From Leptolyngbyaceae cyanobacterium (lineage in GTDB: Bacteria; Cyanobacteriota; Cyanobacteriia; Phormidesmidales; Phormidesmidaceae), in assembly GCA_965263355.1 (NCBI GenBank), contig CBDHHL010000032.1, positions 3,168,001 through 3,232,000 of the forward strand: a stretch of DNA of 64,000 bases, in the 5' to 3' direction. A program made the position numbers and the translations under genes. A model generated the notes under the pieces. It searched no databases. It saw only the letters and a list, made by a program, of their open reading frames with translations, and was not told the origin of the DNA. Positions 6,338-43,876 of the stretch are shown here, one piece after another (positions within the stretch are counted from its first letter, which is position 1; every line of letters begins with the position of its first letter).

Positions 6338-6530
6338 GCTAGATAAATCTAATTAAACAATGGAATTAGAAATACCCTATTGAAGGGTCTGGCTTTTTTG
6401 CAGGTGGTTAACTAAACTTAAAATATAGATATAAGTAAATCATTTCTGGTTTCGAATAGATTTCAGTAAATGATATTTGAAGTTATCGGCTAGTGCAGCG
6501 TTAAAGCTAAACGTTTGGGTTGGTTACTGA

Positions 6531-6597
6531 TAAAGAGTGAAGGGTAAAGAGTGACTCTTCATCCCTTTAAACTCTTTACTCTTTACCCGTCTTACCC
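6531..6597. repeat. Short tandem/inverted heptamer-like repeat (TAAAGAG / CTCTTTA) able to form a hairpin
   Basis: gggtaaagagt (6542-6552) pairs with actctttaccc (6578-6588). Confidence 0.6.
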
Positions 6598-6735
6598 GAA
6601 ATATTAGGCTTGACAGACCGCTAGGTGAAAGATTGCTCTGATTGGAGCTGGGGATTACTCCGATCACAGTTTTTGGTATCTGTTTGATTGGCGGATGCAA
6701 TGTTATGTCCCTGATGTTGCTCTCTAAGTTTCTTC

Positions 6736-12165: not shown

Positions 12166-13215
12166 GTGTGGATTACTTCGTCTCCTACGTCAGCTAAAAA
12201 GCCGACTAAAATTGCTCTTGGTAACTTTGATGGTGTTCATCTTGGCCACCAGCGGGTTATTCAGCCTGTTTTGACCCACAAGGGTGGTATGCCATCCTTG
12301 ATTTTAGCTGAAGATATTTGTTTGCAGGCTGCTGAGGCTTATGGTTATAGCTATTTGCCAGAGACTGGGATTGCAGACCAACTGACTGTCCCATCGTCTG
12401 GATTTTCTGACTGGGCATCGGTAGTGACTTTTTTTCCCCATCCCAGAGAGTTTTTCTCAGGTCGGTCTCGTCCGTTGTTAACGCCATTAGAGGAAAAGAG
12501 CCGTCAGCTGGCTTGTTTGGGGGTAGATCAGCTTGTATTACTGCCATTTAATGCGGCCCTGGCGAATCTAGATGCGGTTACGTTTGTAGAACAGACATTA
12601 ATTAAGGATTTGCAGGCGACCCACATTAGTGTGGGCAGTGATTTCCATTTTGGTAAGGATCGTGGCGGTAATGCGGAGTTGTTAAGTGAGATTGCCGCCT
12701 GTCAGAATATCCCAGTTACCATCGTACCTCTGCACAATGATGATGAAGGGCGCATCAGCAGCTCACGTATTCGCCAAGCCTTGAGCGATGGCGAAATTAC
12801 TAAAGCCAACGGCTTGTTGGGACGGTCCTATACCTTAACTGGGACGGTCGTTCTGGGGCAACAACTAGGCCGTACCCTTGGTTTCCCTACTGCAAACCTG
12901 AAGCTGCCCAGTGATAAGTTGATTCCTCGCCAGGGTGTATACAGCGTTAAAGTGTTTGGCATTTGCCCAGAGCAAAAAAACATCCTTGGTGTGATGAATA
13001 TTGGTAATCGCCCTACTGTTGATGGGCAGTCGATGAGTGTCGAGGTACACATATTTGACTGGGAAGGGGATTTATATGGGAAAACGATCTCGGTCAGTTT
13101 AGAGAGTTTTATCCGACCAGAACGAAAATTTGAATCGTTAGATGCCTTAAAAGTGCAGATCGCACAAGATTGTGAAACGGTAAGAGGTTTTTTTCAGCAA
13201 ATATTAGTTGGATAG
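12166..13215 (+). CDS. ribF: Bifunctional riboflavin kinase/FAD synthetase
   Basis: GNFDGVHLGH, ISSSRIR, GRTLGFPTAN, NIGNRPT. Confidence 0.96.
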   Translation: MWITSSPTSAKKPTKIALGNFDGVHLGHQRVIQPVLTHKGGMPSLILAEDICLQAAEAYGYSYLPETGIADQLTVPSSGFSDWASVVTFFPHPREFFSGRSRPLLTPLEEKSRQLACLGVDQLVLLPFNAALANLDAVTFVEQTLIKDLQATHISVGSDFHFGKDRGGNAELLSEIAACQNIPVTIVPLHNDDEGRISSSRIRQALSDGEITKANGLLGRSYTLTGTVVLGQQLGRTLGFPTANLKLPSDKLIPRQGVYSVKVFGICPEQKNILGVMNIGNRPTVDGQSMSVEVHIFDWEGDLYGKTISVSLESFIRPERKFESLDALKVQIAQDCETVRGFFQQILVG

Positions 13216-13845
13216 TGTTATCAGGTTTCTGGTTGCTTGCTTTTGCTTCGTGTGGATACTTTTCATGTGCTTCTTGACTGTATTTGGAGTAATCCCCAAT
13301 TCTACAGAAATTTGCTTGTAGGTTAAGTCATGACGATGTAGAAACCAGACCTCTTTTTCCCTAGGAGTAAGCCCATATTGTTCAACCTCTTCAATAAGAA
13401 TATTTTCGACAGCCTGCTGGCGATCTTCAATCATGAGTACAAGGCATGGATGCTCCAGTTGCTCAAGCTTTAGCCATTGAGAACGAATGTGTAGAATGGT
13501 GGCATCTTGGGTTACGATATCAAATTCAGTCAACCAGTTTTGTTTTGGAAAGTGGTGTCGACTTTGAATTAGAGATTGACAAATATGCCAAATTTCTTCA
13601 GGAATTTTGTTGCTTGCCGAGCACTTGGGTCGCAGCCGATTTAAAATTTTGTGGGCACCGTTGCTAGCATAAATTAATTGTTGTTGCTCTGTAAAGACTA
13701 GAATAGCATCAATTAATTCCTGGATCAGGTCTACAGCAAAGGAAGGTTTTTTATTTTTTTGCGTAGATGGTTTTCTAGAAGTCTGCTGATTGGAGTCCTG
13801 CCTGCTTACTACCCTAAGACTAGTATTGAGAGGAGATACTTCCAT
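13204..13845 (-). CDS. PAS-like + LuxR-type HTH transcriptional regulator
   Basis: C-terminal LTPREKEV...TYKQISVELGITPNTVKKHMKSI; N-terminal ILVF....LIYAS PAS-like start. Confidence 0.85.
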   Translation of the reverse strand: MEVSPLNTSLRVVSRQDSNQQTSRKPSTQKNKKPSFAVDLIQELIDAILVFTEQQQLIYASNGAHKILNRLRPKCSASNKIPEEIWHICQSLIQSRHHFPKQNWLTEFDIVTQDATILHIRSQWLKLEQLEHPCLVLMIEDRQQAVENILIEEVEQYGLTPREKEVWFLHRHDLTYKQISVELGITPNTVKKHMKSIHTKQKQATRNLITLSN

Positions 13846-13965
13846 GATAGCTACTATGTTACGGGGGTTAATCTTGAATTCGCATACCAGAAAAGAAGAG
13901 TTGACGATGAAAATGACTGGGTTAGAAAGTAATATTATTTGAGCCTAAAAAAGACAAGTTTACCT

Positions 13966-14919
13966 TTAGAGAGAAACTGTTAGCGCTATTTGTTCTATCA
14001 TCCAATGGCAAACCTTGTTGACTTCTATACCTGGCCATTGTTGACTTTGATTAGCGAGTTGTACAGTTGGGGTTGGCAGTATTGATACAGTGACATCTTT
14101 GAAATCTTGATTCTGGTGGTTCTGAAGCTGTCTAGTGAGACTGCTGTTATGGCTTCTGATTGCAGGTAATGTTTGGTGAATTAGCCACTGAGCAACAGTG
14201 TTGATGGCTAATTCTGACCAGTCTGTGGTGTTTATGACTGCGTTAGGAGGATTGGTATTGCTATCAATGCCATTGTCGTCTACCTCAGTGACAGCAGCAC
14301 GAATCTCTCGAGAATTAATGTACTCCGCCTGCATCATTGCTCGAAACGAAGGATATCGATCAGCTCCAGGTAACCAGTCTGCTAAGAACCAGGCCTCCCA
14401 TTCTCCATCTTCTGTCATGACATCGGGATTCAGAAGATAAAGAGCAGCATCGTTCACTTCGCTAATTTCTAGAGCTGTTTCCAAATAGTTAACCCTGATT
14501 TGGCGACAGTCTTGCTCCTCTCCGTAAACAAAATACTCCTCATCGGTTATGGTTGATTGGCTAGCTGTACCATTGATATCTGAAGATGGGCTGTTGTCAT
14601 AGCGCTCAAGCCATTGCTGAAACCACTCTGGGTGAGTCTCAGCAAACCAGGCAATTTTGTCGACGGACCAGAGATGCTTAATAAAAGGAGTGGTTTCTTT
14701 CCATCCGTTGCTGGCTTTGAGAAATGCTCGATAGGAAGGTGGCAACGTGATACCTAGCCTAGCTTCAACTGCCAAAATTTGTTCTTCAGTAGCACCTGGA
14801 TAGCCTAACCATTGTTCCTGCTGATCCTTGTCCAAGTTTTGGAGCTGCTGATCTTGCCCATCCTCTAATATCTCCTGACTCCATTGTTTCAGGAACTCTG
14901 ACCAATTAAAGTGAGTCAT
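13966..14919 (-). CDS. SMI1/KNR4 (SUKH) domain protein with an uncharacterised C-terminal extension
   Basis: WLGYPGATEEQI...EARLG..LPPSYRAFLKASNGW and LLNP.V..EDGEWEAW..A.W.PGA.RY.SF; ATG at 14919 lies 13 nt after the upstream stop. Confidence 0.85.
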   Translation of the reverse strand: MTHFNWSEFLKQWSQEILEDGQDQQLQNLDKDQQEQWLGYPGATEEQILAVEARLGITLPPSYRAFLKASNGWKETTPFIKHLWSVDKIAWFAETHPEWFQQWLERYDNSPSSDINGTASQSTITDEEYFVYGEEQDCRQIRVNYLETALEISEVNDAALYLLNPDVMTEDGEWEAWFLADWLPGADRYPSFRAMMQAEYINSREIRAAVTEVDDNGIDSNTNPPNAVINTTDWSELAINTVAQWLIHQTLPAIRSHNSSLTRQLQNHQNQDFKDVTVSILPTPTVQLANQSQQWPGIEVNKVCHWMIEQIALTVSL

Positions 14920-14932
14920 TTTTGCAAGGTAT

Positions 14933-15592
14933 TTAAGTGACTTGTAATACAGGGACTTCAATAAAAGTAGGTAATGCCTGCATATTTTCAATGGTTAGTA
15001 GAACTTGCAGACGGTAAATTCCCTTTTGTAAACTGGCAGTCGGTAGATACACAGTATAGGGCTCCTGTTGAGGAGAGAGTTTGGTCGACGTTAGCACTCC
15101 CAAGGACATGCTTTCTCCTCCTTTTAATTTACGAGCATAGCACTCTAGTCGGTACGAGGCATTGTCTGGCACTTGCGTCAGAATATCTTGTTCTAGGAGA
15201 CTAAACCGCACGACTAATGAAAATGGAAAGTTGCCTTTGATCGGACTAGGAAATATCATGTTGGGTTTGTACAGACCCATTGCTGCAACAGCTGAGGGCG
15301 GTTGAAGAATGAATAAATCGTCTATATTAGCTGTGAGCAGTTGGCTGGTGTCCAGGGTTGTTGCCCGTAGAGCAGCAGGAGCGGGTGGAATGACTCCAGC
15401 TACTTGCGATCGCATCCATGATTGTAGATTCTCCTCCTCAATTCCCGACCAGGTTTCTTCCTGTTCTGTCGCTAAGTGACGCACTAGCGTTCGATAATAA
15501 ACATTGTCGTCATCTTGTCTGGCCTGAAACTCAACGGTAAAAGCTGCAAATGTTTGCCAGTTTTCCGGCGTCTGAGGAGTGGGTGAAACCAT
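14933..15592 (-). CDS. Uncharacterised two-domain protein (N-terminal W-x10-W module + C-terminal beta-rich domain)
   Basis: 219-aa ORF in operon arrangement; similarity to neighbouring ORFs. Confidence 0.8.
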   Translation of the reverse strand: MVSPTPQTPENWQTFAAFTVEFQARQDDDNVYYRTLVRHLATEQEETWSGIEEENLQSWMRSQVAGVIPPAPAALRATTLDTSQLLTANIDDLFILQPPSAVAAMGLYKPNMIFPSPIKGNFPFSLVVRFSLLEQDILTQVPDNASYRLECYARKLKGGESMSLGVLTSTKLSPQQEPYTVYLPTASLQKGIYRLQVLLTIENMQALPTFIEVPVLQVT

Positions 15593-15649
15593 GCTAGTGT
15601 CAGTTGCCTCATTTGCTTCCAGAGTAAGGCTAAAGGTGTTACGTAATTG

Positions 15650-15720
15650 CTTATGGCCTGAGGCTAACTTACTGGAACCAGAGATCTCTCCCCGGTTCTA
15701 TAAAGTTAGCCTGGCCTAAG
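15650..15720 (-). terminator. Long imperfect stem-loop between the 188-aa and 219-aa genes (attenuator or mRNA stabiliser)
   Basis: ggctaacttta (15662-15672) pairs with taaagttagcc (15701-15711); further pairing ggaacc/ggttct inside and cttatggcc/ggcctaag outside. Confidence 0.55.
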
Positions 15721-15734
15721 TCCGCTGACTGTAC

Positions 15735-16301
15735 TTATGCGTCGTAAACTTGCATCAATACGCCTGCAACATAGCCTGCACCCAAGAGACATGGAGCACA
15801 AGGGTGATCGGACATTTCGATGTTAGCGACGGCTGCTATGAGGTAGAAACCAGGTGTCATGCCAGCAGCGTTGGCTGTGCCAGCCCATTCAATTTCATAC
15901 TCATACGTATCCTTTTGAGTAGTAATAGTGGTGGCAACATCAACTTCAGTCGCGTGACCACCACAGCCTTCGATGCAGAAATTGATTTTAACGTCAATGC
16001 CTAAGCATAGGAGAAGCTTAGTTAGGGGAGTATGATTGAAAACAACCTTGACCTTTAGCTTGAAATACTCGTTCTTTTCAACAATTTGAGCTTTATTAGC
16101 AGGTGCTACTTGCTCTGGAAGAGCTGGATTAGCGACCGATGCTACAACCTGTAATTCGCACATTTCAAATTCAACAGGCCCCAAAATATTTCTGGAGTAT
16201 GTTTCAGAAGATGCATACTCACGAGTTAGTTGCTCACTTTTTGGTCTGGCGGCATTGGGAGAAGCACCAAAAGGCGCTCCTTTGGGAATTGTGATCGACA
16301 T
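15735..16301 (-). CDS. Uncharacterised cysteine-rich beta-rich protein
   Basis: 188-aa ORF with a clear SD (AAGAGGAAAAACCT-ATG); six Cys including CIEGC and CAPC. Confidence 0.85.
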   Translation of the reverse strand: MSITIPKGAPFGASPNAARPKSEQLTREYASSETYSRNILGPVEFEMCELQVVASVANPALPEQVAPANKAQIVEKNEYFKLKVKVVFNHTPLTKLLLCLGIDVKINFCIEGCGGHATEVDVATTITTQKDTYEYEIEWAGTANAAGMTPGFYLIAAVANIEMSDHPCAPCLLGAGYVAGVLMQVYDA

Positions 16302-16741
16302 AGGTTTTTCCTCTTAAATACAGAGTAATTACGATTTTGAGGTAGTAGAGCGAATGCCAATTCAACAATTTGTATTGCTAACTACTGTCATTTGTTGAAC
16401 TGAAGAACTCTTTCTTGCTACCTGAGGTTATGATGCCGAATTCATCTAAGTTTGAAAATTCTCCCATGGGGATACCCTGATTGGGGTGATCAGCTTTTGA
16501 GGTGATCATGCTAGATGTAGTGGCATGTTCTGGGGTTTCCCCTTAAAAAACACTATATGAGCTACTCTACCTATAAGGCAGAACCTGATTGAGCCCTCTA
16601 CTCAGATGTGAGCTTGAATGAGAAAATGCATAAACTAGACGGTTTTGTCGTGTGTAGGTGGTACCCAGGCAGGGTACTTTTAGGACCAAAATCAGGGTAG
16701 ATCTAAAAAAATACGATTAACATTCTGTAAAAATTAGGGCA

Positions 16742-17185
16742 ATGTTTATGGATAGTGTCAGCATTCACAGTATGCCGATTCTTTGCCAAATGCAGGATTT
16801 GGTCATCGTGACAAGCCAGACGGATCAGACTGCCACTGATACAATTTTGTGGCATGACAAACCCTTTTCAGTTCAAGTGTCACTAAGGTTTCAGGGGACT
16901 AATGCGATCGCATTACTAGCCTTGAGCCCGATTATTCAAGTCGACTTCTATGCCAGGTCTTTACAAGCTGGTTCAAATCTGGATTTAGGTGTTGTCACTG
17001 TTGAAACAGCCATTGAGTCTATAAATTATACACCTACTCTACAGTTGAATTCACCCACGGAAATTGGCTTTACGGCAACGGCTGTCTATCGTATAGGAGC
17101 CTTGGTTAGAATCGGTGCATTGGATCAACCTGGGTTACTCTGTGGTGTATTAGAAAATCTTGTAGTACAAATTTATCGAAATTAG
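16742..17185 (+). CDS. Uncharacterised beta-rich protein, paralogous to the two divergent ORFs
   Basis: 147-aa ORF; shared motifs PFSV.V, YAR.L..G....LGV, YRI, VQIY. Confidence 0.8.
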   Translation: MFMDSVSIHSMPILCQMQDLVIVTSQTDQTATDTILWHDKPFSVQVSLRFQGTNAIALLALSPIIQVDFYARSLQAGSNLDLGVVTVETAIESINYTPTLQLNSPTEIGFTATAVYRIGALVRIGALDQPGLLCGVLENLVVQIYRN

Positions 17186-17495
17186 TAGAACGTTGATCAA
17201 TAACCTCATCCTAAATCCACGCTTAAATCATATCGTTGTAGTACAAATGCTTCGTTGCAATATATCGTCTTGTCTAAGTAAACTTAGTTGACATTTTAAG
17301 ATAAGGTTTCCAGATTAAAGAATGAATAGGCTGAATCAGTTAGCTGAGGCTTAGTATCTTCATCGATATTATGCTTGAGCTTTAACATGTTTAGTCTTGA
17401 CATCGTGCATCTCAAGAACAATTTCTTTTATCAGTAGCAAATTTGATTGTGCTTCAGCTAATCCAATATCCCTGTAAGATATTTTTATACATATC

Positions 17496-18083
17496 ATGGA
17501 AGTTTTTGCTGATTGGGAGAATGTTCTTCCAGTAAGTTCTTTAAAAGATCATGACGAACCGGATTTTCTTTGGAGTATTCTTGAAAGTTCAATTCAGGGG
17601 ATTCTAATATTACATGATGTTGATCATTTGCTCTACGCTAATCAACATGCGTGCAGAATTCTACGCAAGATGGATCCAACGTTTTCCCAAAAAAGTGCTC
17701 TTCCAGAAGAGATAAATTATATTTTTCGGTCTCTTCAAGAAATTCGTCACCTGTTTCCCAAGCAAGATTGGCTGATAGAAACCAAAATTCTGACTGATCA
17801 ATCAGCAAGCTTTGAAATCCAGGCACGCTGGACCCATTTGAAGTCAACAAACTCCAAGTGTTTACTTTTGATGCTGCAAGATTCTGATCAGCAACGCCAG
17901 GATATTGCCTTGGAGGAAGCAACTCGCTATAACCTGACTGCCCGCGAAACCGATGTTTGGCTATTATACAGAGTAGGTTATGCGTATAAAGAAATTGCTG
18001 TAGAGCTAGATATTACATCAAATACGGTGAAAAAGCATATGAAAAATATTTGGGCCAAGCAGCAGTCTCAGGCAGACGATTAG
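17496..18083 (+). CDS. PAS-like + LuxR-type HTH transcriptional regulator (paralog of 13204-13845)
   Basis: LTARETDV...YKEIAVELDITSNTVKKHMKNI; shares PEEI, RH.FPKQ.WL.E and CL.LM..D with the paralog. Confidence 0.85.
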   Translation: MEVFADWENVLPVSSLKDHDEPDFLWSILESSIQGILILHDVDHLLYANQHACRILRKMDPTFSQKSALPEEINYIFRSLQEIRHLFPKQDWLIETKILTDQSASFEIQARWTHLKSTNSKCLLLMLQDSDQQRQDIALEEATRYNLTARETDVWLLYRVGYAYKEIAVELDITSNTVKKHMKNIWAKQQSQADD

Positions 18084-19834: not shown

Positions 19835-21380
19835 CAGGGTAATTGCAGTTATTTAGTATAAATTGTACTTGACAGAAAGTATTAAATAGTGGGTCAGTGT
19901 GATCACCAAATGATTCTAAACCCAATGCTAATAACAAGTGTTAATATGCAGCTCAATTTAGAACCCATGCAACATGACCTCTTAACAGAATGATGTGAAG
20001 TTCTCTCAATCCAGATTCGTGTTGTGCTCAGCATTAACACACCAGAAACACTACACCTCAGCTTCAGTGTCAGCACTAGCCATGAGTAACGACAAAAGAT
20101 AATTATTATCCATGGCAGCCCGATACCGCTTTGTGTTGATACTACCTTTGCTAGAATCTCGTTTTATGAGATTGATGCACAAACGTCGAAGTAATCCTAT
20201 ATTCTCCGGTCCATGGTCTTTTCGAATTCGACTTTGGTCCTCTTTGAAGGTCACATCTAGAACCCAATGGAGACTATTTTCAATACTCCAATGGGACCGA
20301 ATCGATTGCCCAAAAACACTGGCATCTGATTCTAAACTGCTGATATAAAAGCAGATGTTTTCTTCTTCTTTGTTCGGTAGAATTCGTCTACGACGAACCA
20401 TCACAATACTCTTTAACCCTTTCCATTTCTGCACATTGGGGAGGTCTGGCACTTGCTCAATCGAGACAACCCACACCTGACGATGCTCAATGCGATCATG
20501 TCCTGCTTCAGTAGTATGCTCATAACTATAGTCAATGTCCTGCCATTCATTGGCTCGGGCCTGTTCAAAAAAATCTTTAACACCCTGATAGAGATTGTCT
20601 TGATTCGCCTTGAGCGCCAATATATAGTCCCCTCCACCCTGAATAATTTGCTCTGCAATGGCCGTTTGCGTCCCCATCGCATCGATGGTGATGATTGTTC
20701 CTTCTAAGGACAACATTTCAAGCAGCTCAGGAATGGCCGTAATCTCATTGGATTTGGTATCGACCCGTTGCTGAGCTAACACTAAGTGATGTTCTGATGC
20801 CCAGGCACTCACGCTATGGAGTGCTTTACCCCCCACCTTCCGATCCTTCGACCCCCGCAAGGTCTTGCCATCGATATGGATGACTTTGATCTGTAATTGG
20901 GTTGTTATTTGCTCTATCCAACCCAAGAAAAACTGATGAAACTGCTCTGGGTCGATCACTCTAAACACCCTTGAGAAAGTATCGTGCGACGGGATGCCAT
21001 GGGGCAATTCCAAAAACGTCGATAACCATTCCTGTTTTGCCTCACCATAGGTTTCGACCTCCGTCATCGTGTTGGACCCAGCTAAGGTCGCAAAGATGGC
21101 GATGGTGACGATATCAATCAGTAAATGGAGGGGGTTTCGTTTCGTACGAGGGTCATCTAGGTTCTTGATCTCATCAAGCATCGTGTGCTTGAGCGTTGGG
21201 GTGGGACTGGACTTGGATAGGGGCAACGATGGTGGACCAAACCCTTTTGACATAAAGCTAAACCCGTACTGGGATGGTTGAAGGACAAGTTTTGAAGCTA
21301 GCAAACTCCAAGCCCTATCCACCATTCAATCAGTACTAATTGTCAAGTACAATTTATACCAAATAGCTGCGATACCCCTG
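19835..21380 (-). mobile_element. ISAs1-family insertion sequence (1546 bp)
   Basis: Terminal IRs starting CAGGG: 19835-19874 versus the reverse complement of 21341-21380 match at 35/40; contains a transposase. Confidence 0.9.
20051..21325 (-). CDS. ISAs1-family DDE transposase (likely start ATG 21253)
   Basis: GIPSHDTF.RVF, IDGKTLRGS, KSNEITAIP, TIDAMG, LALK.NQ, R.HW.IENSLHWVLDV.F.ED. Confidence 0.95.
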   Translation of the reverse strand: MVDRAWSLLASKLVLQPSQYGFSFMSKGFGPPSLPLSKSSPTPTLKHTMLDEIKNLDDPRTKRNPLHLLIDIVTIAIFATLAGSNTMTEVETYGEAKQEWLSTFLELPHGIPSHDTFSRVFRVIDPEQFHQFFLGWIEQITTQLQIKVIHIDGKTLRGSKDRKVGGKALHSVSAWASEHHLVLAQQRVDTKSNEITAIPELLEMLSLEGTIITIDAMGTQTAIAEQIIQGGGDYILALKANQDNLYQGVKDFFEQARANEWQDIDYSYEHTTEAGHDRIEHRQVWVVSIEQVPDLPNVQKWKGLKSIVMVRRRRILPNKEEENICFYISSLESDASVFGQSIRSHWSIENSLHWVLDVTFKEDQSRIRKDHGPENIGLLRRLCINLIKRDSSKGSINTKRYRAAMDNNYLLSLLMASADTEAEV

Positions 21381-21603
21381 CCTGCAGGGCAGATGTGCGA
21401 GTATTTTTAAGAGTAGCCTCTTCCTCCAGATTCACCAGACTCAAAACCACCCGATTGTCCAGCTCGGTAGCGATCTCAGAGACATCTAACTGCGCAATGT
21501 TGCCCATAACAACGGCATCAGCAGTCCCCAGCGACTCCCCATCTTGCTGGCGCAAGTACTGGTTCAGTTGAGCTAATAAAAGAGAAAGTGCGTTATAAAT
21601 CAT
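21381..21603 (-). pseudogene. 5' fragment of a DUF4255/Pvc16(Afp16)-like gene truncated by ISAs1
   Basis: MI..AL..L...LNQYL...VV.GNIA...VVLSLVNLEEEATLKN matches the DUF4255 N-terminus as I recall it; the frame runs into the IS IR after about 74 codons. Confidence 0.7.
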
Positions 21604-22175
21604 AAACGTCGACGGCGTTGAAAGGCCTCAAACATTTCCTGGCGTCTCAATATCAAGCCCCAGAATCAAAATTAGAAAAGTCAATCCACGTTGGCAAATT
21701 TGCCAAAATGAACCTCCAAATCGATGTAGAAAATCGGCTAATCACAAACCCGAGGGATAATTGGGAAGAAAGACGATTTGTTAGGAAAATAACAATTTAT
21801 AATTAATTCCTGAAAAGAGAAATTTCAAAAACCCATTTGACTATCTCATCAAATAGCTAAACTCTAATTTTTTCAGGAAGATAAAAACACCCCAATTGAC
21901 TGTGGGAGTAAGATTATCATAGATAACCCTAATCTCAGGTGTCTAGAATCAACATGCACTAAATGTGACTCCTGGATAACACACCAAAATGCTACACGCT
22001 CAGTAAAGCTAAGTTGCCTTTTAAGTCGCTTCTTGTCATTTTTGTTAACATTTTAACTTGTGTTGATATCGTTAAAACTTTCTAAAGAGTCATTGGTAAA
22101 CAGATCTCTGTCAAACTTTAATTTGCTCGAAAATTAAAATAGGGGCGAATGGTTTCGATCTTGTCTAAAAATAAA

Positions 22176-22193
22176 AGTACCCTCATGGGTACT
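22176..22193. promoter_or_regulatory. Palindromic operator-like site AGTACCC-N4-GGGTACT
   Basis: Perfect 7-bp arms in the roughly 1-kb divergent intergenic region. Confidence 0.4.
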
Positions 22194-22643
22194 GTCAAAA
22201 TCCTGTATTCAAGGATTTAATCAATAAACAAAGTTGATCGCGCTAAGTTAAGTCCAATTAATTGGGCGTAATTATTGTGTTTAGTCGATCAACATGTATG
22301 GCTTGGTAGTGCTGTTAAGGGCAGGGTAGAGAAAAGTAACGTTACTCACTATCCCTGAAAAGTAAGGGTTTCAGGTGAATTGTATTATTCTCTAGCCTTC
22401 TCTGGGCCTTCTGAAATAGACTGTCGGAAGACCTAACTTATAAATTTCATAAAACAACTCACTCAACTTCAATTGAATAAAAGTTGAGGCACCTGAACCA
22501 CTGGTTAACGTGCTCGACGTTTGAGGCTTTCCTAAAAGACTTTTTTGTTGCCAACTTAATAGGTCTGGTCAGCGAGTTTATATGGCGTTTAAGTGTTCAG
22601 CATAGGTTCGATATAACAAAGATATTAAGGAGAAAGAGTGCAA

Positions 22644-23975
22644 ATGAATATCTACCAAGAGTTATGGACGATTGATCTTGAGCATAATGGTTGTTCGGTT
22701 AGTGCAAAAGACAAAGATGGTAACTGGATTTTACCCAGTGCTGACATTCTGATTGATGAGCAAAAAGAAGCCACTCAAACTGATCAGGCCCCTGACCCTC
22801 TTTTTGCCTATGTAAACCCAGCTAAATTAGATTTACCAAGCTATCAAGCGCTCATCGCGTTGCTCAACAATTACGTAGTGAATGTTCGCCTGAGCGAAGA
22901 CCATCTGGGTGACAATCAGGTTGAAGATGGTGAAATCGAGACGTTCCTAGATACCATACTTGAAACTGATGTCATGAAACGGGCCCAGAAGCATATGCGT
23001 GAAACCCTAGCTTTTAAGGAAGCCGCAGATAATCTGAAAACCGAGTTAAAACGCATCTGGTTTGAGCTATACACCAATCACTTCAATCGTATAGCTGTCC
23101 CCTTTGCCTCAGGCTTTGAGCATGTGTTTGTTGGTGAGGGTAAGCGCAGAGGTAATGGCATTGGTGGGTACCATTCATGGATTAAATACTACCTTGACGA
23201 AAAAAATGACCGTGTTGATTTTCAAGGCTTCAACTATGATGGTAACTTTAATCGCCAAAGTCTAGCAGGCAGTACCGTTCCGATGGTTGCCACTATCAAA
23301 ATGCAATGGACCCCTTTGGATATCTTTGGTGCCCCTATTGGCCTTTTGGAGAAAGACATGGGTGGCTTCTTTGTTGGCCCAAGCCCTGAATTACAAATTG
23401 CATTGGGTACTGTAGCCTTTTATGAAAGTAAAGCAAATCTGTTTGATCGGGCTTCAGGTAACGAGAAAAAGGTTGAGATCATGAATGGGCTCTTCCATTT
23501 GGTTATGTACCGTAGTACCACGGTAGATCAACAAAGAGGAGATCATATTCGTTCATTCTTTCCTAAATTCAAGGCACCCTTGCAAGGTACAGGCACTGAT
23601 GTTGTTATACCAGTTGAGGGAGATCGCGATGATACTATTAATAGTGGTATTATCCGAATTGTGAAAGCACTAGTGAACCCTGAGGGATCGGACATGGGAC
23701 GAGAATGGGTTGAAATAGAGAATAATTCGGACTCTATCATTGACCTGAACGGCTGGACAATTGCTGACAAACTAGATCGTCGTGAGCCTGTTTTAGGTCA
23801 AATAGAACCAGGGAAAACAAGACGTATCATGATGACAAGACGCACTCATGACAATGCCCAGCTTGGGAATAGTGGGGGGGTGATCAAGGTTTATAATTCT
23901 AGCGATGACCTGGTTGCTCAAGTCAGCTATGGTAAAGTCGCATCTGGTGCAACATTGTTTTTTGTTGAGGCATAG
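22644..23975 (+). CDS. XendoU/EndoU-family endoribonuclease fused to a C-terminal lamin-tail domain
   Basis: SGFEHVFVGE, GGYHSW..YY..EK, K..GGFFVG.SPE..IAL.T EndoU motifs; I..ALVNP.G.D.GREWVEI.N...IDL.GW.I.D and LGNSGG.I LTD motifs; AGGAG SD upstream (start could also be GTG 22638). Confidence 0.85.
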   Translation: MNIYQELWTIDLEHNGCSVSAKDKDGNWILPSADILIDEQKEATQTDQAPDPLFAYVNPAKLDLPSYQALIALLNNYVVNVRLSEDHLGDNQVEDGEIETFLDTILETDVMKRAQKHMRETLAFKEAADNLKTELKRIWFELYTNHFNRIAVPFASGFEHVFVGEGKRRGNGIGGYHSWIKYYLDEKNDRVDFQGFNYDGNFNRQSLAGSTVPMVATIKMQWTPLDIFGAPIGLLEKDMGGFFVGPSPELQIALGTVAFYESKANLFDRASGNEKKVEIMNGLFHLVMYRSTTVDQQRGDHIRSFFPKFKAPLQGTGTDVVIPVEGDRDDTINSGIIRIVKALVNPEGSDMGREWVEIENNSDSIIDLNGWTIADKLDRREPVLGQIEPGKTRRIMMTRRTHDNAQLGNSGGVIKVYNSSDDLVAQVSYGKVASGATLFFVEA

Positions 23976-24108
23976 GCTATCAAACAAAAGATAGTCTCGA
24001 ATGACTCTTGGGTCATCGAGCTGGCTGCTTGGCTGGATACTAATAAATCCAAAAAAGTCGAAAATATGGCTTGAGCAAGCCTAGAGGGTTTTATCGAGCC
24101 ATTCTTTG

Positions 24109-25263
24109 CTACCTTATCTCTCCTACAGTCACTAAATACAGTGCCGCTTCTTCTTCGCCGTCAACTTCCAATAGTTCGTTAAGTGGATCGTCAAAGAACG
24201 CGCCAATGCCGCATACACCTAAACCCAGGGCGGTAGCGGCCAAATATAAGTTTTGACCTAAGTGCCCGGCTTCCATCAGCACATAACGGTACGTGCGCTC
24301 ATGATACTTCCAGCGCGTTCGTTGAAAAATACCTGAGACAACAAAACAAACCTGTGCTTCTCCTAGAAAATCCTGATTTAGCCCTGCCGTAATTAATGGT
24401 TGCCGGAGGTCTCCTGCTTTTACCAGTTCTAGCTGGTGATTTTGCACAGCATGGTGATATAGGCCAGGTTCTAACCCATCTACGCGATGCACAATGGGAT
24501 AAATTTCTAACGGATACAGAGCGCCAGATGACGGTACTGTGCGAAACTCTCGCTCATCCCAGGTGATGCCTTGTGCCAGATACAGTAGCCTTGAAAGGTG
24601 TTCCAGAGATAATGTGCTTTGGGTGTTATAGCGACGGCGTGAACGACGGGTAGTCATCGCTGTTGCTACGTTCAATCTAGTGATGGGAGAAGTCTCTGAC
24701 GGGTCAACCTTAGGCAGCTCAATCTGTTGACTATGGGGATAGGTTTTGTAACGTGGTGGCTCCTGGCCCCAGTTGAGAATAGTGGCAATGGTTTCGCCAT
24801 ACCCCGGCTGGCTCCACTTATGATATAACAACCCTACATCTTGATTCACGTCTGCCAGACTAATGGTTTGTTGCGGTGTGACAAATCGCTCAAATCCGAT
24901 ACCGGTAGCAATAGCCAAAAGAAACAGCAACAGATTCCGCCGTCCCTTAGGTGCAGGTGTGACAGATTGGGATAGCTCGGTGGGCTGGGCTATTTCTGGT
25001 GGTGGGCTAGCGCTTTTAGTCGATGATAGTTTGCCAGAACGGTCTCGAAAGCGATTCCGGATAAATGCTTTCACCCGCGCCCAGGTTTGGATTAAATGCG
25101 TAATTGCTAGCCCCATCCACAGGTAACCTACCTGACTATGAAAGCCAAAGTGATGTAACCCCATGGCATCTGCAATTAACCCGGTGATAAAAACATAGAC
25201 GCTGCTCCCCACTAGCAGGGTAATGACGACGTAGTCAAGATCGCGCCGTTTTACTATTGCCAT
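24109..25263 (-). CDS. SagB/ThcOx-type nitroreductase-fold FMN oxidoreductase with an N-terminal membrane domain
   Basis: RRS.R.Y, R..PS.GALYPLEIY, KY.ER.YRY..MEAGH..QN.YL.A..LGLG. Confidence 0.85.
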   Translation of the reverse strand: MAIVKRRDLDYVVITLLVGSSVYVFITGLIADAMGLHHFGFHSQVGYLWMGLAITHLIQTWARVKAFIRNRFRDRSGKLSSTKSASPPPEIAQPTELSQSVTPAPKGRRNLLLFLLAIATGIGFERFVTPQQTISLADVNQDVGLLYHKWSQPGYGETIATILNWGQEPPRYKTYPHSQQIELPKVDPSETSPITRLNVATAMTTRRSRRRYNTQSTLSLEHLSRLLYLAQGITWDEREFRTVPSSGALYPLEIYPIVHRVDGLEPGLYHHAVQNHQLELVKAGDLRQPLITAGLNQDFLGEAQVCFVVSGIFQRTRWKYHERTYRYVLMEAGHLGQNLYLAATALGLGVCGIGAFFDDPLNELLEVDGEEEAALYLVTVGEIR

Positions 25264-28014: not shown

Positions 28015-28404
28015 CTACAGCCCCATAAAATCTTTGAGAGCAAGTTTATGACGGTTTTTTAGGCGTTTGGAGGCAAGGCCACCGACCTGAATCTGTTTGA
28101 CTATGGTGTTTGAACATTGTCCCTTAGCGGTTCGATTGCCCGTTGGCATTAGCTTAGCTAGATCCCTTGCCGTTAGTTCTCGGGCAAACCGATAATTGAC
28201 CACCGATTCATGGATAATGAAGTCTGGTACGTCAGGGCCTGGTTTTAGAATACAGACGGTTTCTGATTTGGGTTGACGGCTATTGATGCTGACAAATAGA
28301 TGTCGAGTTTTGCTGGTTTTTGCGATCGCAACATATAAATGCTTCCCTTTCGGCGGTGTTTTGATCAAAAAAGCATCGCCAAGACGAATAGAGAGGCTAG
28401 TCAT
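28015..28404 (-). CDS. Putative toxin (possibly PemK/MazF-like) cognate to the Panacea antitoxin
   Basis: Basic ORF of about 129 aa whose ATG overlaps the antitoxin stop (ATGACTAG); GDAF...HL.V.....V.I.S...C.L......FI.H.S.V.Y pattern. Confidence 0.5.
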   Translation of the reverse strand: MTSLSIRLGDAFLIKTPPKGKHLYVAIAKTSKTRHLFVSINSRQPKSETVCILKPGPDVPDFIIHESVVNYRFARELTARDLAKLMPTGNRTAKGQCSNTIVKQIQVGGLASKRLKNRHKLALKDFMGL

Positions 28405-28981
28405 GGGCAAACTTATCCCCTAAGACTTCATCGAGATAGGCTTCGCGCATTACATCCGCTTGAATGCGCACAATTTCGGCATCACTTTTACCCAGGTTTT
28501 TAAGGATTTCTTCTACCACAATGGGAATAGCTGAGCCGTTCGGATCTTGCCATTCCGGCAGATCATGGGTCCACTCAGCCACCTCAAATGGGTCCAAATG
28601 ACCGAAGGTATCATATACCTGTTGGAGAATCATTTCTTCTTCCTCACAGAGTTCTCCATCCCCCGGATCACCTAGCAGAGAAATACAATTCTCTTCACGG
28701 GGAGAGATAAATTTAGACCAAAGGGGGAGAGCATTTTCCACTGGGAGGCCTTTAATCAGGTCATAGACACCGCTAAGCACTGGGCCATAGTCCATGGAGA
28801 CGTAGCAGTCCCCCGTAATTGGTTGCTCCATTTGCGCTAGGGCTACTCGGTCGGCAATGTATAACATTTTGAGTAAACCGAGATACTTCATCGGTTTACC
28901 ATGACGCTTCAGGAGTATGGCTGCTGCCTCTACCGCTTTTTCTGGATAAAACTGAAACTCAATAGCCATAATTAGTTTCAC
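28397..28981 (-). CDS. Panacea/SocA-like (DUF4065) antitoxin (likely start ATG 28969)
   Basis: LKMLYIADR.......PITGD.Y.SM.YGPV.S.VYD and TH.LPEW motifs. Confidence 0.8.
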   Translation of the reverse strand: MKLIMAIEFQFYPEKAVEAAAILLKRHGKPMKYLGLLKMLYIADRVALAQMEQPITGDCYVSMDYGPVLSGVYDLIKGLPVENALPLWSKFISPREENCISLLGDPGDGELCEEEEMILQQVYDTFGHLDPFEVAEWTHDLPEWQDPNGSAIPIVVEEILKNLGKSDAEIVRIQADVMREAYLDEVLGDKFAHD

Positions 28982-31267: not shown

Positions 31268-32320
31268 TTAGTAGCGACTGCGTCTAGCTTCAATTTCGGC
31301 TTGCACAGTATCCGGGACTGCCGATAGCAGGTCATAGCCCGTGGCAAGTTCAATCCGATCAATAGAGGTTTGGTAAGTTTGCCAACGGTCGTCGAGGCGA
31401 TCACTGTTGGGCATATCTACCGCAATGATCTCAGTGCCATAGGTAACATTGTCTACGGTTGGGGCATTGTCAAAGACAACAATTGCTTTCCAGACTCGGC
31501 TAGGGGGAATAATCCGCTCCTTCGCAATGGGGCGCTTTTGCCCATATACTCCAGCAATGATGTACAACGTTTTATTTTGTTGATAAAGCAGGTCACGGCA
31601 ATAATTTTCCAATTCTTTCCATGGCCCCCGGTTGTTCTCGGCTGTTTGAGGAAAAATATTGGTCATCAAAAATGTTGCCGAGTTGTCTTGCTCGTTGGCG
31701 GTACGGTCGGCTGAAGGTACCATATGCCCACGATCGTAACCGCTATTGGTATAGTCTCCAGGGGTCACCTGGTAGGTACCCTTAGGTAAAATGCCATCGG
31801 GTCTGAAGTCGTTTTGCCGTTCGGTGTTGCCTATCCAGTCATGACTTAGCACCCAACTAGCCCAGCGCAGTATGCCACGACTTTGGCTGTAAGCAAGCAC
31901 GTAGGGTCCTCGATCAATCAAGTAATTATCACTATTTTCTTGCCCTGCATGGCTAGGATTGCCCAAGGCAATGTGTGGGTTATTGGAAAAATAGGTTTCC
32001 CAATCTAGTTCTGGTGTACTTTGCGGCAATCGTTCACAGGCACGACCATTGCCATCACCATCTAGGTTATGTGGATCGCCTTGAAACTCATCAAGCACTA
32101 GTTGGGCTAAATCCTGACTCACAAAATCACCGCAGTCGCAGTTCTGCTCAACACAAGGAGGTAAGTGGGCATGGGGATCGCTCAGGTCGTTGGCCAAATC
32201 CTCGCAGCCTGTTGCTGTCAGCAGTAGGAGAGCCGCCTGTATTGAATGCTTAAGCCACCATGGCCAAGGTGCTAAATTCCAGTGCCTCAACGTTTTATCC
32301 AAAGGGTGATCTGCTCCCAT
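31268..32320 (-). CDS. DNA/RNA non-specific endonuclease (NucA-type) with an N-terminal Excalibur-like Ca-binding domain
   Basis: YDRGHMVPS, TF.MTN..PQ...NRGPW..LE; CDC.DF..Q..AQ...DP..LDGDGNG.ACE. Confidence 0.88.
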   Translation of the reverse strand: MGADHPLDKTLRHWNLAPWPWWLKHSIQAALLLLTATGCEDLANDLSDPHAHLPPCVEQNCDCGDFVSQDLAQLVLDEFQGDPHNLDGDGNGRACERLPQSTPELDWETYFSNNPHIALGNPSHAGQENSDNYLIDRGPYVLAYSQSRGILRWASWVLSHDWIGNTERQNDFRPDGILPKGTYQVTPGDYTNSGYDRGHMVPSADRTANEQDNSATFLMTNIFPQTAENNRGPWKELENYCRDLLYQQNKTLYIIAGVYGQKRPIAKERIIPPSRVWKAIVVFDNAPTVDNVTYGTEIIAVDMPNSDRLDDRWQTYQTSIDRIELATGYDLLSAVPDTVQAEIEARRSRY

Positions 32321-32513
32321 GAGTGTACCCTGGTGTTAGTACAAAAATATTATCAATATTACAAAATGCATCCTTATGCGTCCTTTGGTATCCCCCATGG
32401 AGGGATGGGGAAACGGCAGTATACTGTTAACTGCGCTGGACGATTTCGCTAAAGGATTTTTCCAACGAAGCTTCTGGCAGACGACCCATCCACTATTTAA
32501 CCGATTGGTGACT

Positions 32514-32981
32514 ATGCTCAACAACGCAATTGCCTTACTAAACGCTTGGTTCCCGGCTACTGAGGTCCATGCCCACTGTGATGGTCCCTGTGGTGTTTAC
32601 GATCCGTCTGCTGCTCGCATCACCGCTGAAGCTGTGCTCTCCATGACCAAGAAAATTTTGGCCCTTGAGGAGCCTGCGGATGCTGCTGGTAAAGTAGCCT
32701 ATGCTAATACCCTTTCTCGTTACATTGCGATTAAGGAAGAGCAGGCTCAAAAGACTAAGGATGATTTGCTAATTCTGTGGACTGATTACTTTAAGCCAGT
32801 GCATTTAGAGTCCCATCCTGACCTCCATGACACCTTCTGGAAAGCTGCTAAACTTTGCTCTGCTTGCAAAGTAGAGGTTAGTCAGCAGCATGCTGAAGAA
32901 CTAATGACTGCAGTTGAGAAGATCCACACTATCTTCTGGGCAACTAAGGGCCGTGATGTGGCTTGGTATACCGCTAGCTAG
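32514..32981 (+). CDS. sodN: Nickel superoxide dismutase precursor
   Basis: Ni-hook HCDGPCGVYDP after a short leader; start at ATG 32514. Confidence 0.95.
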   Translation: MLNNAIALLNAWFPATEVHAHCDGPCGVYDPSAARITAEAVLSMTKKILALEEPADAAGKVAYANTLSRYIAIKEEQAQKTKDDLLILWTDYFKPVHLESHPDLHDTFWKAAKLCSACKVEVSQQHAEELMTAVEKIHTIFWATKGRDVAWYTAS

Positions 32982-33005
32982 TGGTTGTATAGTCAATATT
33001 TAAGG

Positions 33006-33041
33006 AAACCCGCAAGGTTATTAATGCTTTGCGGGTTTTTT
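33006..33041 (+). terminator. Intrinsic terminator after sodN
   Basis: aaacccgcaa...ttgcgggttt followed by a T-tract. Confidence 0.7.
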
Positions 33042-33100
33042 GTATTTGCTTAGGGCATTACCGTAGCGCAGCGGAGGCATCCCCGGAGGGGTATCGGACA

Positions 33101-33556
33101 ATGGGCGGACAGTGGGCAAATGGGCAATATCTGACGGCAGGGCAATACCTTCCAGATGCTAGTTGGGGGGATTATATTCAGTGGTTTTTGGGGCGGCGGC
33201 AGCGATTTGTGGTGCGGGAAAATTCTATGCTGCCTACACTGATGCCAGGCGATACTGTTTTGGCAGAGCTGGGCAGTGCCGTAACCGTGGGAGATATTGC
33301 GCTAGTGCATTGGGGCGGTTTGCAAAAAACATCAGAGACAACCGATGCACCTTCTAACCGAGATGTTGCCTCCAGGAGTGCTCCTGCTATTTTGCTGGTT
33401 AAACGGGTCAGTGAAATCTTCTATGACGGTAGTGTCTACTTGATCAGCGATAATGCAAATGAGCCTAATGCCCGTGATAGCCGACACTTTGGTGTCATAG
33501 AATCACGACAGGTAATTGGCCGCGTGACGAGCCGTTTGGCTTCGTTACCGGAGTAG
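33101..33556 (+). CDS. sodX: Ni-SOD maturation protease (S26 family)
   Basis: SMLPTL..GD, LVKRV, DN.....DSRHFG; immediately downstream of sodN. Confidence 0.85.
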   Translation: MGGQWANGQYLTAGQYLPDASWGDYIQWFLGRRQRFVVRENSMLPTLMPGDTVLAELGSAVTVGDIALVHWGGLQKTSETTDAPSNRDVASRSAPAILLVKRVSEIFYDGSVYLISDNANEPNARDSRHFGVIESRQVIGRVTSRLASLPE

Positions 33557-43129: not shown

Positions 43130-43831
43130 CTAATCGTTGCTTTTTGTTGGTCGGAAAGGATTGAGGAAATTAATTAGCGAGTAGATGTTACGGGACTGCA
43201 CCCACAGGCGTCCTGAACCACTAAAACGAGCTACCAAACCCTCTCCACCAAAAATACCGGTTCTTAACCCCCTAAACGATAGGCCACTAATCATTTCTAC
43301 GTTATAAGTAAGGGTATCTTCAAACGCGACAATATAGCCCGTGTCTACGACATAGTCGCCTTCTACAGGAATTTCTAAAATTGCTCCAAAGGAGCTAAAC
43401 CAAAAGTCTCCTTGCCCTGTAACTTTGAGTAGAAACAGGGATTCTCCACTAAAGAACCCTTTAAATCCTTGAAATTTACTGTCAATGGACACCCCTGGCC
43501 CCGCTGCGACAAAGCCAGACGACTGTACCATCAAATTTTGACTACCATCCAAAACATAGTGCTGAATATCTCCAGGAACACCTGGTGATATATACAATTC
43601 TCCGGGTTGGCCGTTTGCTGTAAATTCGCTGATAAATAGAGATTCGCCCCCCAGCATTCTACCCAGGCCTTGTTTCCATCCTCCTTTCGCTTTTGATTTC
43701 ATGTCGATACAGCTATCCATGGCCGCCATCGCTCCAGCTTCCACAGATACTGTTTGATTGGGCTGGAGGCTGAGCTTGAGTGAAGCGTAGGCAGGGTTAT
43801 GTTCGATGGAATAAGTGATTGTGCTACTCAT
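43130..43831 (-). CDS. AIM24/TIGR00266 family protein
   Basis: EAGAMAAM, GGESLF, VDTG..VAF, GEG. Confidence 0.9.
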   Translation of the reverse strand: MSSTITYSIEHNPAYASLKLSLQPNQTVSVEAGAMAAMDSCIDMKSKAKGGWKQGLGRMLGGESLFISEFTANGQPGELYISPGVPGDIQHYVLDGSQNLMVQSSGFVAAGPGVSIDSKFQGFKGFFSGESLFLLKVTGQGDFWFSSFGAILEIPVEGDYVVDTGYIVAFEDTLTYNVEMISGLSFRGLRTGIFGGEGLVARFSGSGRLWVQSRNIYSLINFLNPFRPTKSND

Positions 43832-43876
43832 CTGGTGCGATTCCTAGTGGGTGACGGGTTAATGAATAGAGGGCGG

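Follow-up and report, generated by a model that had tools for sequence, protein, structure and literature searches.

In the main text of the reports by Malard et al., human EndoU is described as allosterically activated by Ca2+, with E217 and E284 as ligands of ion site 1 and D179 and D315 as ligands of ion site 3 (PMC11275989; PMC11961692), whilst E290 relays the signal from site 1 to the catalytic residue H285 (PMC11275989). The D179A, E284A and E290A variants are inactive and E290D is active, and both the long N-terminal extension of the enzyme and its switch are presented in these texts as eukaryotic traits, the former as eukaryote-specific and the latter as "a unique evolutionary adaptation" of eukaryotes (PMC11275989; PMC11961692). 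Here we describe a bacterial gene that encodes such an extension together with, by alignment, the switch residues: it lies in a 64,000-nucleotide stretch of DNA from a Leptolyngbyaceae cyanobacterium (GenBank assembly GCA_965263355.1, contig CBDHHL010000032.1, positions 3,168,001 to 3,232,000; referred to below, at its full length, as the window), and its product, as judged from profile matches and a structure model, is an intact, leaderless endoribonuclease of the XendoU/EndoU family with a C-terminal lamin-tail domain (LTD). The gene, its domains and the residues discussed below are located as follows:

22644..23975, plus strand: complete coding sequence of the 443-residue XendoU-LTD protein, with the ATG at 22644 and the stop codon ending at 23975
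22644..23579, plus strand: XendoU ribonuclease domain, residues 1-312, comprising an N-terminal strand/helix cap, a helical extension and a beta-rich catalytic core (Pfam, AlphaFold2, Foldseek)
23649..23972, plus strand: LTD, an immunoglobulin (Ig)-like beta sandwich, residues 336-443 (Pfam PF00932, all-beta in the model, Foldseek)
22782..22784, plus strand: codon of D47, equivalent to human D179 in Ca2+ site 3 (alignment)
22896..22901, plus strand: codons of E85-D86, equivalent to human E217 in Ca2+ site 1 (alignment; a one-residue gap leaves the register uncertain by one)
23118..23123, plus strand: codons of the E159-H160 pair, equivalent to human E284 in Ca2+ site 1 and to catalytic H285 (alignment)
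23136..23138, plus strand: codon of E165, equivalent to the human relay residue E290 (alignment)
23172..23174, plus strand: codon of H177, equivalent to catalytic H300 (alignment)
23217..23219, plus strand: codon of D192, equivalent to human D315 in Ca2+ site 3 (alignment)
23352..23354, plus strand: codon of K237, equivalent to catalytic K343 (alignment)

A first-pass annotation of this DNA, made from the letters alone, had read here a long XendoU domain of eukaryotic type fused to an LTD rather than the short domain of bacterial toxins, and had named a Pfam search and a phylogeny as ways to check it. The Pfam search bears this reading out: XendoU (PF09412) is matched with an E-value of 1.4e-54 over residues 28-307 (185.4 bits against a cut-off of 32.3; profile positions 16-262 of 262) and LTD (PF00932) with 1.7e-10 over residues 336-430 (41.7 bits against 34.3), both above their cut-offs, whereas the short bacterial EndoU model PF14436 remains below threshold (13.5 bits against 25.3). 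A short linker (residues about 313-335) joins the two domains, and the helical extension consists of the helices between residues 59 and 140 in the AlphaFold2 secondary structure. The motifs that had been listed are all present in the translation: ELWTID (residues 6-11), PLFAYV (52-57), YQALIALLNNY (67-77), FLDTILETDVMK (101-112), IWFELY (138-143), SGFEHVFVGE (156-165), GYHSWIKYYLDEK (175-187) and KDMGGFFVGPSPELQIALGT (237-256). Both catalytic histidines and the lysine are likewise intact, with H160, H177 and K237 aligned by phmmer with H285, H300 and K343 of human EndoU (PDB ID: 9ftw), and this triad is kept in 138/138 aligned relatives.

The AlphaFold2 model, based on 138 homologues, exhibits a mean per-residue confidence (pLDDT) of 92.5 with no segment below 50 and a predicted TM-score (pTM) of 0.90. 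In a sequence search of the PDB, XendoU (2c1w; E 2.7e-27) and human EndoU (9ftw; E 7.2e-25) are the sole solved relatives, and they are also the best structural matches: the top five Foldseek hits of the model in the PDB are chains of 9ftw and 2c1w (E 9e-18 to 2e-15, target TM 0.73-0.80), whilst the C-terminal domain recovers the Ig folds of lamin A/C and B1 (E 2.6e-4 to 1.5e-3, target TM about 0.5). At the level of profiles and predicted structure, the domain identity, the fold with its duplicated beta-rich core, the His160/His177/Lys237 triad and the long N-terminal helical extension are therefore established. The window protein resembles XendoU and human EndoU in the full-length domain, the N-terminal extension, the triad and the acidic residues of the Ca2+ sites; it differs from them in being bacterial and intron-less, in its added C-terminal LTD and in an identity of only about 25% over the Foldseek structural alignment, and relative to 2c1w it has extra loops that face gaps, e.g. 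residues 199-213 and 224-236. Nidoviral NendoU (coronavirus Nsp15, arterivirus Nsp11) shares the catalytic core and is recovered by Foldseek with E-values of 3e-4 to 1e-2, but has other N-terminal domains, forms hexamers, reaches a target TM of about 0.2 and lacks the extension with the Ca2+ sites.

The switch residues were mapped through the phmmer alignment to 9ftw, in which H285, H300 and K343 confirm that the numbering matches, and the ligands compared are those named in the main text of Malard et al.. Position 47 (human D179) is an aspartate in 118 of 138 relatives, the others showing 16 gaps and 4 substitutions that belong mostly to a divergent deep clade; E85 (human E217) is a glutamate in 131 and an aspartate in 5 of these relatives; E97, which corresponds to E226 of site 2, is a glutamate in 137; E159 (human E284) is kept in all 138; and E165, the counterpart of the relay residue E290, is a glutamate in 137 and an aspartate in one. 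Position 192 (human D315) is more often asparagine (76 relatives) than aspartate (48), the same alternation as is reported for eukaryotes at this position in the text consulted (PMC11961692). As far as alignment and model can tell, the long extension and the Ca2+-switch residues are thus a feature of the bacterial XendoU-LTD family too, and it is likely from this conservation that the activity of its members depends on a divalent cation bound at these sites. As bacterial relatives carry both the extension and the residues, the Ca2+ switch probably predates eukaryotes or at any rate is not restricted to them: the "eukaryotic" switch residues are found in this gene and in several hundred bacterial relatives, and the switch of EndoU could be studied in simple bacterial proteins.

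Our preferred reading, to which we give about even odds (roughly 0.5), is that the window protein would be a divalent-cation-gated, uridylate-specific RNase that lies latent in the cytoplasm and plays an accessory role in cell death or anti-phage conflict. By analogy with XendoU and human EndoU, it would cut single-stranded RNA at uridylates through a metal-independent, RNase A-like chemistry that leaves 2',3'-cyclic phosphate ends. The enzyme would stay off as long as the sites between extension and core lack a divalent cation (Ca2+, possibly Mn2+), and cation binding would order the E165-H160 hairpin. Free Ca2+ in the bacterial cytoplasm is assumed to be low, and the enzyme would be latent there, which would explain how a potentially lethal RNase needs no antitoxin; ionic gating would in this respect be a candidate way of keeping a dangerous RNase without one. 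A breach of the envelope or release of the protein would switch the enzyme on, the LTD could serve as a tethering or substrate-binding module and, in what is the less certain step, the protein may act as an accessory "dismantling" RNase in cell death or anti-phage conflict. The physiological role is one that we infer, and two roles share the same enzymology: an effector of conflict or cell death is favoured by the cassettes of hydrolase genes, the location on plasmids or islands, the patchy distribution and the pseudogenes described below, whilst extracellular salvage of nucleic acids is favoured by the LTD, an ExeM-like partner, a NucA fusion and a minority of relatives with leaders. We rank the former slightly above the latter.

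The protein belongs to a broad but patchy, horizontally moving bacterial family. A protein search returned 718 homologues at E ≤ 1e-3 among 3990 candidates, and both Pfam domains are present in 114 of the best 120 of these 718, the other 6 having XendoU only (precomputed annotation); an exhaustive search of representatives gave 3747 proteins at E ≤ 1e-3 (LTD-only proteins included), 966 at ≤ 1e-10 and 72 at ≤ 1e-30. In a genome collection with one genome for each of 185,579 species, 183 stretches encode a relative, and the best 80 of these 183 were analysed as loci. They span 11 phyla: 55 loci are from Cyanobacteriota, 6 from Bacteroidota, 5 from Myxococcota, 3 each from Pseudomonadota and Planctomycetota, 2 each from Acidobacteriota and Latescibacterota and 1 each from Bacillota, Melainabacteria, Chlorobiota and Gemmatimonadota. 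Cyanobacterial homologues, which are said to have been noted in the early XendoU papers, are sporadic, as the first-pass annotation had stated: PF09412 is found in 7 of 401 sampled cyanobacterial genomes (the phylum of locus L001), 2 of these with in-frame stops. These two apparent pseudogenes, L088 (G016:C6) and L090 (G177:C32), have a PF09412 domain with 3 and 4 in-frame stops, respectively. Of 401 genomes sampled from the order to which the Roseobacter relative belongs, the centre genome itself was the single positive.

Plasmids of Nostoc sp. C057, three Sinorhizobium and one Rhizobium carry distant full-length copies (28-29% identity), and three Bacillus megaplasmids carry XendoU copies without LTD; in a phage collection of 50,697 records, no match to XendoU-LTD was obtained. 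Metagenomic proteins P0002-P0019 are 55-88% identical to the window protein, and a metagenome scan for the contexts of relatives gave a single locus, L084, which is LTD-only. The subfamily is known to databases, under the labels "lamin tail domain-containing protein", "poly(U)-specific endoribonuclease" and "Endoribonuclease XendoU", and is unstudied: our literature search found no paper combining XendoU with a lamin tail domain or XendoU with Nostoc, and none on PF09412 about bacterial members of the XendoU-LTD type. The available part of a 2026 BECR survey mentions neither the LTD nor the XendoU-LTD architecture. The architecture is thus common in bacteria, a finding that the first-pass annotation would have counted as a refutation had it come together with a functional characterisation, for which no paper was found.

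This distribution bears on the proposal that the protein is a housekeeping or regulatory RNA-processing enzyme, in analogy to the release of small nucleolar RNAs by XendoU. The protein shares its family and its catalytic residues with the processing enzyme of eukaryotes, and being leaderless it is cytoplasmic by default; against this stand the few and partly broken copies among the sampled cyanobacterial genomes, a genomic context that differs in every lineage, the location in a low-GC accessory patch beside an insertion sequence and a phylogeny that mixes phyla. We consider such a role, which had also been put forward in the first-pass annotation, very unlikely, the patchy distribution speaking against it.

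Phylogenies were calculated from the XendoU domain, with FastTree for 173 proteins and with IQ-TREE (LG+C20 PMSF, quick search) for 87 rows spanning the clades, the other 86 rows being left out of the latter, unrooted tree. Eleven eukaryotic rows could be named from their cluster members (two Branchiostoma, Holothuria, Cyprinus, Eptatretus, Ischnura, Crassostrea, Parastrongyloides, Bigelowiella, Ploeotia and Polarella), and 10 of the 11 fall in one 27-row clade (SH-aLRT 99, stem of 1.0 substitutions per site). Together with Polarella and one unnamed row, this clade makes up the 29-row side of a single branch (SH-aLRT 88), and all 58 bacterial rows, the window protein included, lie on the opposite side. 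No LTD was found in the rows of the eukaryote clade. Within the bacterial part, which mixes phyla in the IQ-TREE phylogeny, the window protein pairs with L001 from a marine cyanobacterial metagenome-assembled genome (76% identity), and this cyanobacterial pair is sister to two copies from Roseobacteraceae (SH-aLRT 96), which speaks for horizontal spread between phyla.

The long "eukaryotic" type of the domain, and the fact that the best solved structures are those of animal proteins, would suit a recent acquisition from a eukaryote without an adapted bacterial function. The tree contradicts this, the closest sequences come from bacteria (76-88% identity, compared with about 25-40% for animal proteins) and the LTD fusion occurs in bacterial rows only, so that we give such an acquisition practically no credence. 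Because a single branch parts all named eukaryotes from all bacteria, the gene did not come from a eukaryote recently, and the inter-domain transfer suggested in the first-pass annotation falls away as a recent event. The phylogeny does separate eukaryotic from bacterial XendoU; being unrooted, it cannot tell the direction of the ancient link between them. Earlier comparative work, in the parts consulted, proposed a bacterial origin of eukaryotic EndoU (PMC3113570; PMC3417536).

The genes surrounding XendoU-LTD were compared in the 80 loci, in which open reading frames (ORFs) were called mechanically (the longest ORF of at least 70 residues, or of at least 30 residues in the flank check) and then clustered. 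In these loci no conserved antitoxin or immunity gene and no conserved secretion gene was found beside XendoU-LTD, and no conserved small ORF (30-120 residues, ≤ 700 bp) is shared beyond sets of five close relatives. A multi-hydrolase cassette recurs in which genes for an S8 peptidase and, next, for a hydrolase of metallo-beta-lactamase (MBL) fold come after XendoU-LTD: it is complete in Primorskyibacter (L002, 3731-10987), represented by the S8 gene only in Roseobacter sp. (L003), and found again on plasmids of S. meliloti and Rhizobium sp. (L082, 4982-10783; L095, 4977-10783), i.e. in the sister clade of the window protein and, independently, in the most distant clade. Searched against PADLOC, the MBL-fold protein of the cassette matches LmuA (8.6e-46), Avs1a (1.5e-34) and RTasMBL, its NCBIfam match being Avs1a (2.9e-43), and the S8 peptidase matches PADLOC "subtilase" (3e-37). 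The rhizobial plasmid cassettes are preceded by a conserved 302-residue protein of no family, and a lipase-like, caspase or patatin gene lies near the S8/MBL cassettes, with both a caspase-family gene and a patatin gene nearby in S. chiapasense. A caspase-domain gene adjoins XendoU-LTD in L066, and a B. cereus megaplasmid carries in a row patatin, XendoU, Endonuclease I, S8 and histidine phosphatase genes. L083 and L094 also belong to the set of loci, with L002, L082 and L095, in which such arrangements of hydrolase genes were noticed.

The arrangement of S8 and MBL genes after XendoU-LTD in Roseobacteraceae and on rhizobial plasmids is reminiscent of the anti-phage pairs of an MBL protein with a protease (Avs1a of AVAST type 1, MBL-type LmuA of Lamassu; PADLOC "subtilase", IetS), and the recurrent cassette may be an undescribed multi-hydrolase conflict module. 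An unstudied RNase family is in this way linked with cassettes of hydrolase genes that have components in common with anti-phage systems. Unlike AVAST and Lamassu, the XendoU-LTD cassettes have no STAND, SMC or other sensor gene recognised beside them, XendoU-LTD is part of no PADLOC model, and the window has neither an S8 nor an MBL gene. For the defence RNase of the first-pass annotation there is therefore some support from the neighbours of relatives and none from a PADLOC match of the window protein itself.

A more far-reaching version of the conflict role is that bacterial XendoU-LTD proteins would be calcium-triggered self-destruct RNases, firing on phage lysis or through the action of partner phospholipases and proteases, which travel in undescribed leaderless "dismantling" cassettes and are ancestral to the eukaryotic Ca2+ switch. 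The parts of such cassettes would be an ExeM-like DNase, an S8 subtilase, an Avs1a/LmuA-like MBL protein, a caspase and a patatin, and the cassettes would be those of cyanobacteria, myxobacteria, planctomycetes, Bacteroidota and plasmids. If this held true, the Ca2+-activated EndoU switch of animals and plants would be an inheritance from the bacterial XendoU-LTD family; we regard this version as doubtful.

As the first-pass annotation had stated, the window protein has no signal peptide: its maximum N-terminal hydropathy is low, and the conserved IYQxLWxxD starts at residue 3 and is confidently modelled as helix, which leaves no cleavable leader. The nearest relatives are 439-449 residues long and have the same M-x-IYQ start as the 443-residue protein, and amongst 186 bacterial relatives with a complete domain N-terminus the domain begins at most 14 residues from the methionine in 153, the window protein included. 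Architectures vary in the wider family: P0131, which belongs to the deep LTD clade and bears the cluster label "poly(U)-specific endoribonuclease", contains two XendoU domains and an LTD, P0166 contains XendoU and two LTDs, and P0145 and P0147 combine XendoU with DUF6359 behind a leader. In three Coleofasciculus loci (L015, L020, L021; about 5660-7390), XendoU-LTD has an N-terminal extension of roughly 130 residues that belongs to no family.

The only recurrent neighbour in the 80 loci is a gene of the EEP family, found directly upstream and on the same strand in 18; these loci are all cyanobacterial and fall in three separate parts of the XendoU tree, L001 included. The EEP partners are leaderless too, and in their Nostocales form they can be aligned to the ExeM/NucH DNase domain (NF033681, E 2.4e-9, below the cut-off). 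In the Coleofasciculus loci mentioned above the partner is longer (550-581 residues), with an N-terminal part that we take to resemble a von Willebrand A domain. The remaining 133 genes that directly flank XendoU-LTD are a mixed set of housekeeping or unknown genes.

An alternative is that the protein is an extracellular or envelope-associated enzyme of nucleic-acid salvage: lacking a Sec leader, it would leave the cell through lysis or non-classical export and be activated by high external Ca2+, the LTD would hold the RNase near the cell or its substrate, and environmental RNA would be degraded together with DNases and phosphoesterases for phosphate and nucleosides. Described counterparts are the extracellular nucleases ExeM, NucH and Xds (LTD, OB and EEP domains), with which the window protein shares the combination of LTD and nuclease. 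According to the sections consulted, ExeM has a signal peptide, an N-terminal LTD and the DNase in a single polypeptide, deletion of its LTD lowers activity in vitro, the only experimental hint on the LTD, and the LTD is proposed to direct proteins to membranes (PMC6085458). The window protein, in contrast, is an RNase with a C-terminal LTD and without leader, OB or EEP domain; in relatives the EEP protein is encoded by a separate gene, and in the window that gene is absent.

Several observations weigh against our reading of a cytoplasmic, cation-gated conflict RNase, and a number of them fit salvage at least as well. The predicted cation dependence draws on six to seven aligned residues, and XendoU also uses Mn2+, so that the cytoplasm might not keep the enzyme off. 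Bacterial LTDs are typical of secreted, periplasmic or membrane hydrolases (PMC6085458, in the part consulted), and the text available on LTD-nuclease proteins proposes a part for them in DNA foraging (PMC8289736). The EEP partner is of ExeM/NucH type; signal-peptide-like leaders, as counted by a crude hydropathy heuristic, occur in 15 of the 186 relatives (~8%) and often end just before DIYQ; and P0144 is a fusion of a NucA-type Endonuclease_NS with XendoU and LTD. Phosphoesterase-type neighbours (PLD-like in L013 and L071, Metallophos in L075, His_Phos in L079) also suit salvage, as does the match of the window LTD to an LTD on an Acaryochloris plasmid whose gene is annotated "DNA/RNA non-specific endonuclease". 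The cassettes, for their part, are found in just 2 of the 80 genome loci plus plasmid records, their MBL and S8 scores stay below the NCBIfam equivalog cut-offs and no sensor NTPase was recognised in them; no NCBIfam model matches the 443-residue protein, PADLOC-DB 2.0 gives 0 families for it and two EEP partners, and in this genome XendoU-LTD is an ordinary accessory gene, solitary and without partner.

Salvage nonetheless has to contend with the leaderless state of the window protein, of most relatives and of the EEP partners, with the lack of conserved secretion genes near XendoU-LTD in the 80 loci and with a very patchy distribution that would be unusual for a nutrient-acquisition trait. 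The "putative endoU-like nuclease" All2314 of Anabaena, listed in the accessible part of an exoproteome report (PMC10957091), does have a SignalP-predicted leader; it was not counted as a member of this family here. All in all, we hold salvage to be a tentative possibility, and the conflict reading remains the one that we prefer.

The surroundings of the gene in the window bear on a further explanation. The elements next to it are:

19835..21380, minus strand: ISAs1-family insertion sequence with 47-nt terminal inverted repeats at 19835-19881 and 21334-21380
20051-21325, minus strand: ISAs1 transposase within the insertion sequence
21343-21603, minus strand: Pvc16_N-like remnant, an 86-residue ORF truncated by the insertion sequence (weak Pfam match, E 9e-5)
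21604..22626, no strand: about 1 kb 5' of the gene without a convincing gene, the place that the EEP gene occupies in 18 of 80 related loci
22627..22638, plus strand: purine-rich Shine-Dalgarno-like stretch AAGGAGAAAGAG 5' of the ATG (direct reading of the sequence)
24109-25263, minus strand, convergent with the RNase gene: SagB-family peptide-dehydrogenase domain (TIGR03605, 153 bits, above cut-off) with an N-terminal hydrophobic region

EndoU-fold domains are common as toxin tips, as the parts consulted of two surveys describe (PMC3482391; PMC3113570), and a Pvc16_N-like remnant about 1 kb upstream, together with an immunity-type SUKH-1 gene 8 kb upstream, could point to a delivered toxin, be it a polymorphic toxin or the cargo of a contractile injection system. 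The window protein shares the superfamily and the catalytic histidines with the bacterial EndoU toxins (PF14436; CdiA-CT, MafB, Tox-EndoU), and the contact-dependent inhibition toxin complex 5hkq is weakly recovered by Foldseek (E 3.3e-3). In these toxins, however, a short domain that needs no cofactor forms the tip of a large secreted protein and is paired with a cognate immunity gene, whereas the domain described here is long, N-terminal and without an immunity neighbour, and the only other domain is the C-terminal LTD. The sub-threshold PF14436 score argues in the same direction, as do the lack of an N-terminal trafficking or repeat domain, the catalytic domain starting at residue 3, and the lack of an adjacent immunity gene in the 80 loci. 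The Pvc16 piece is a remnant truncated by the insertion sequence, the window holds no other contractile-injection genes, and no injection-system component appears amongst the Pfam matches of the scanned neighbours in related loci; the idea of a cargo of an extracellular contractile injection system, raised by the remnant, was rejected on these grounds. A delivered effector, as the first-pass annotation had also considered, is disfavoured since there is neither a delivery domain nor an immunity gene, and we deem it highly improbable.

The window as a whole is a segment of a cyanobacterial chromosome, with NDH-1/ChpY CO2-uptake genes, a PAP-fibrillin gene, ribF and genes with phosphate-transporter-like domains, and the XendoU-LTD gene is situated at the margin of an accessory patch with lower GC content, about 1.3 kb from the insertion sequence. 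Its coding sequence has a GC content of 43.5% and, at third codon positions (GC3), of 39.6%, below the flanking housekeeping genes (GC3 about 0.5); a GTG at 22638 is an alternative start codon. A remnant of the EEP partner was sought in the 1-kb gap upstream and not found: with two EEP partners as tblastn queries, the window yielded no hit with an E-value under 2. Promoter-like sites were not above shuffled expectation, and an Rfam scan of 21300-24300 returned zero matches. No peptide-maturation partners were noticed near the SagB-family gene. Nitroreductase neighbours seemed to be shared by the window and locus L005; the two proteins are unrelated (BLASTP E 0.12) and the likeness is a coincidence.

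Further upstream, a block of low GC3 (0.36-0.42) at 13204-18083 contains two LuxR/GerE-type regulators (13204-13845 and 17496-18083), the SUKH-1/SMI1_KNR4 immunity-type protein (13966-14991) and three ORFs without a family in Pfam, NCBIfam or PADLOC. Downstream, an antitoxin gene with a SocA/Panacea domain (28397-28981, minus strand; Pfam E 4e-24) overlaps a 131-residue ORF of no family (28015-28410), and the two are likely to form a toxin-antitoxin pair (28015-28981, minus strand). A NucA-like DNA/RNA non-specific endonuclease (Endonuclease_NS, E 1.3e-51) is encoded 7 kb downstream of the RNase gene, in the region 31268-33556, where it adjoins genes for a nickel superoxide dismutase and an S26/S24-like peptidase, and three tandem paralogues of the AIM24 family, each with a Pfam E-value of about 1e-60 to 1e-65, lie at 43130-45410 on the minus strand.

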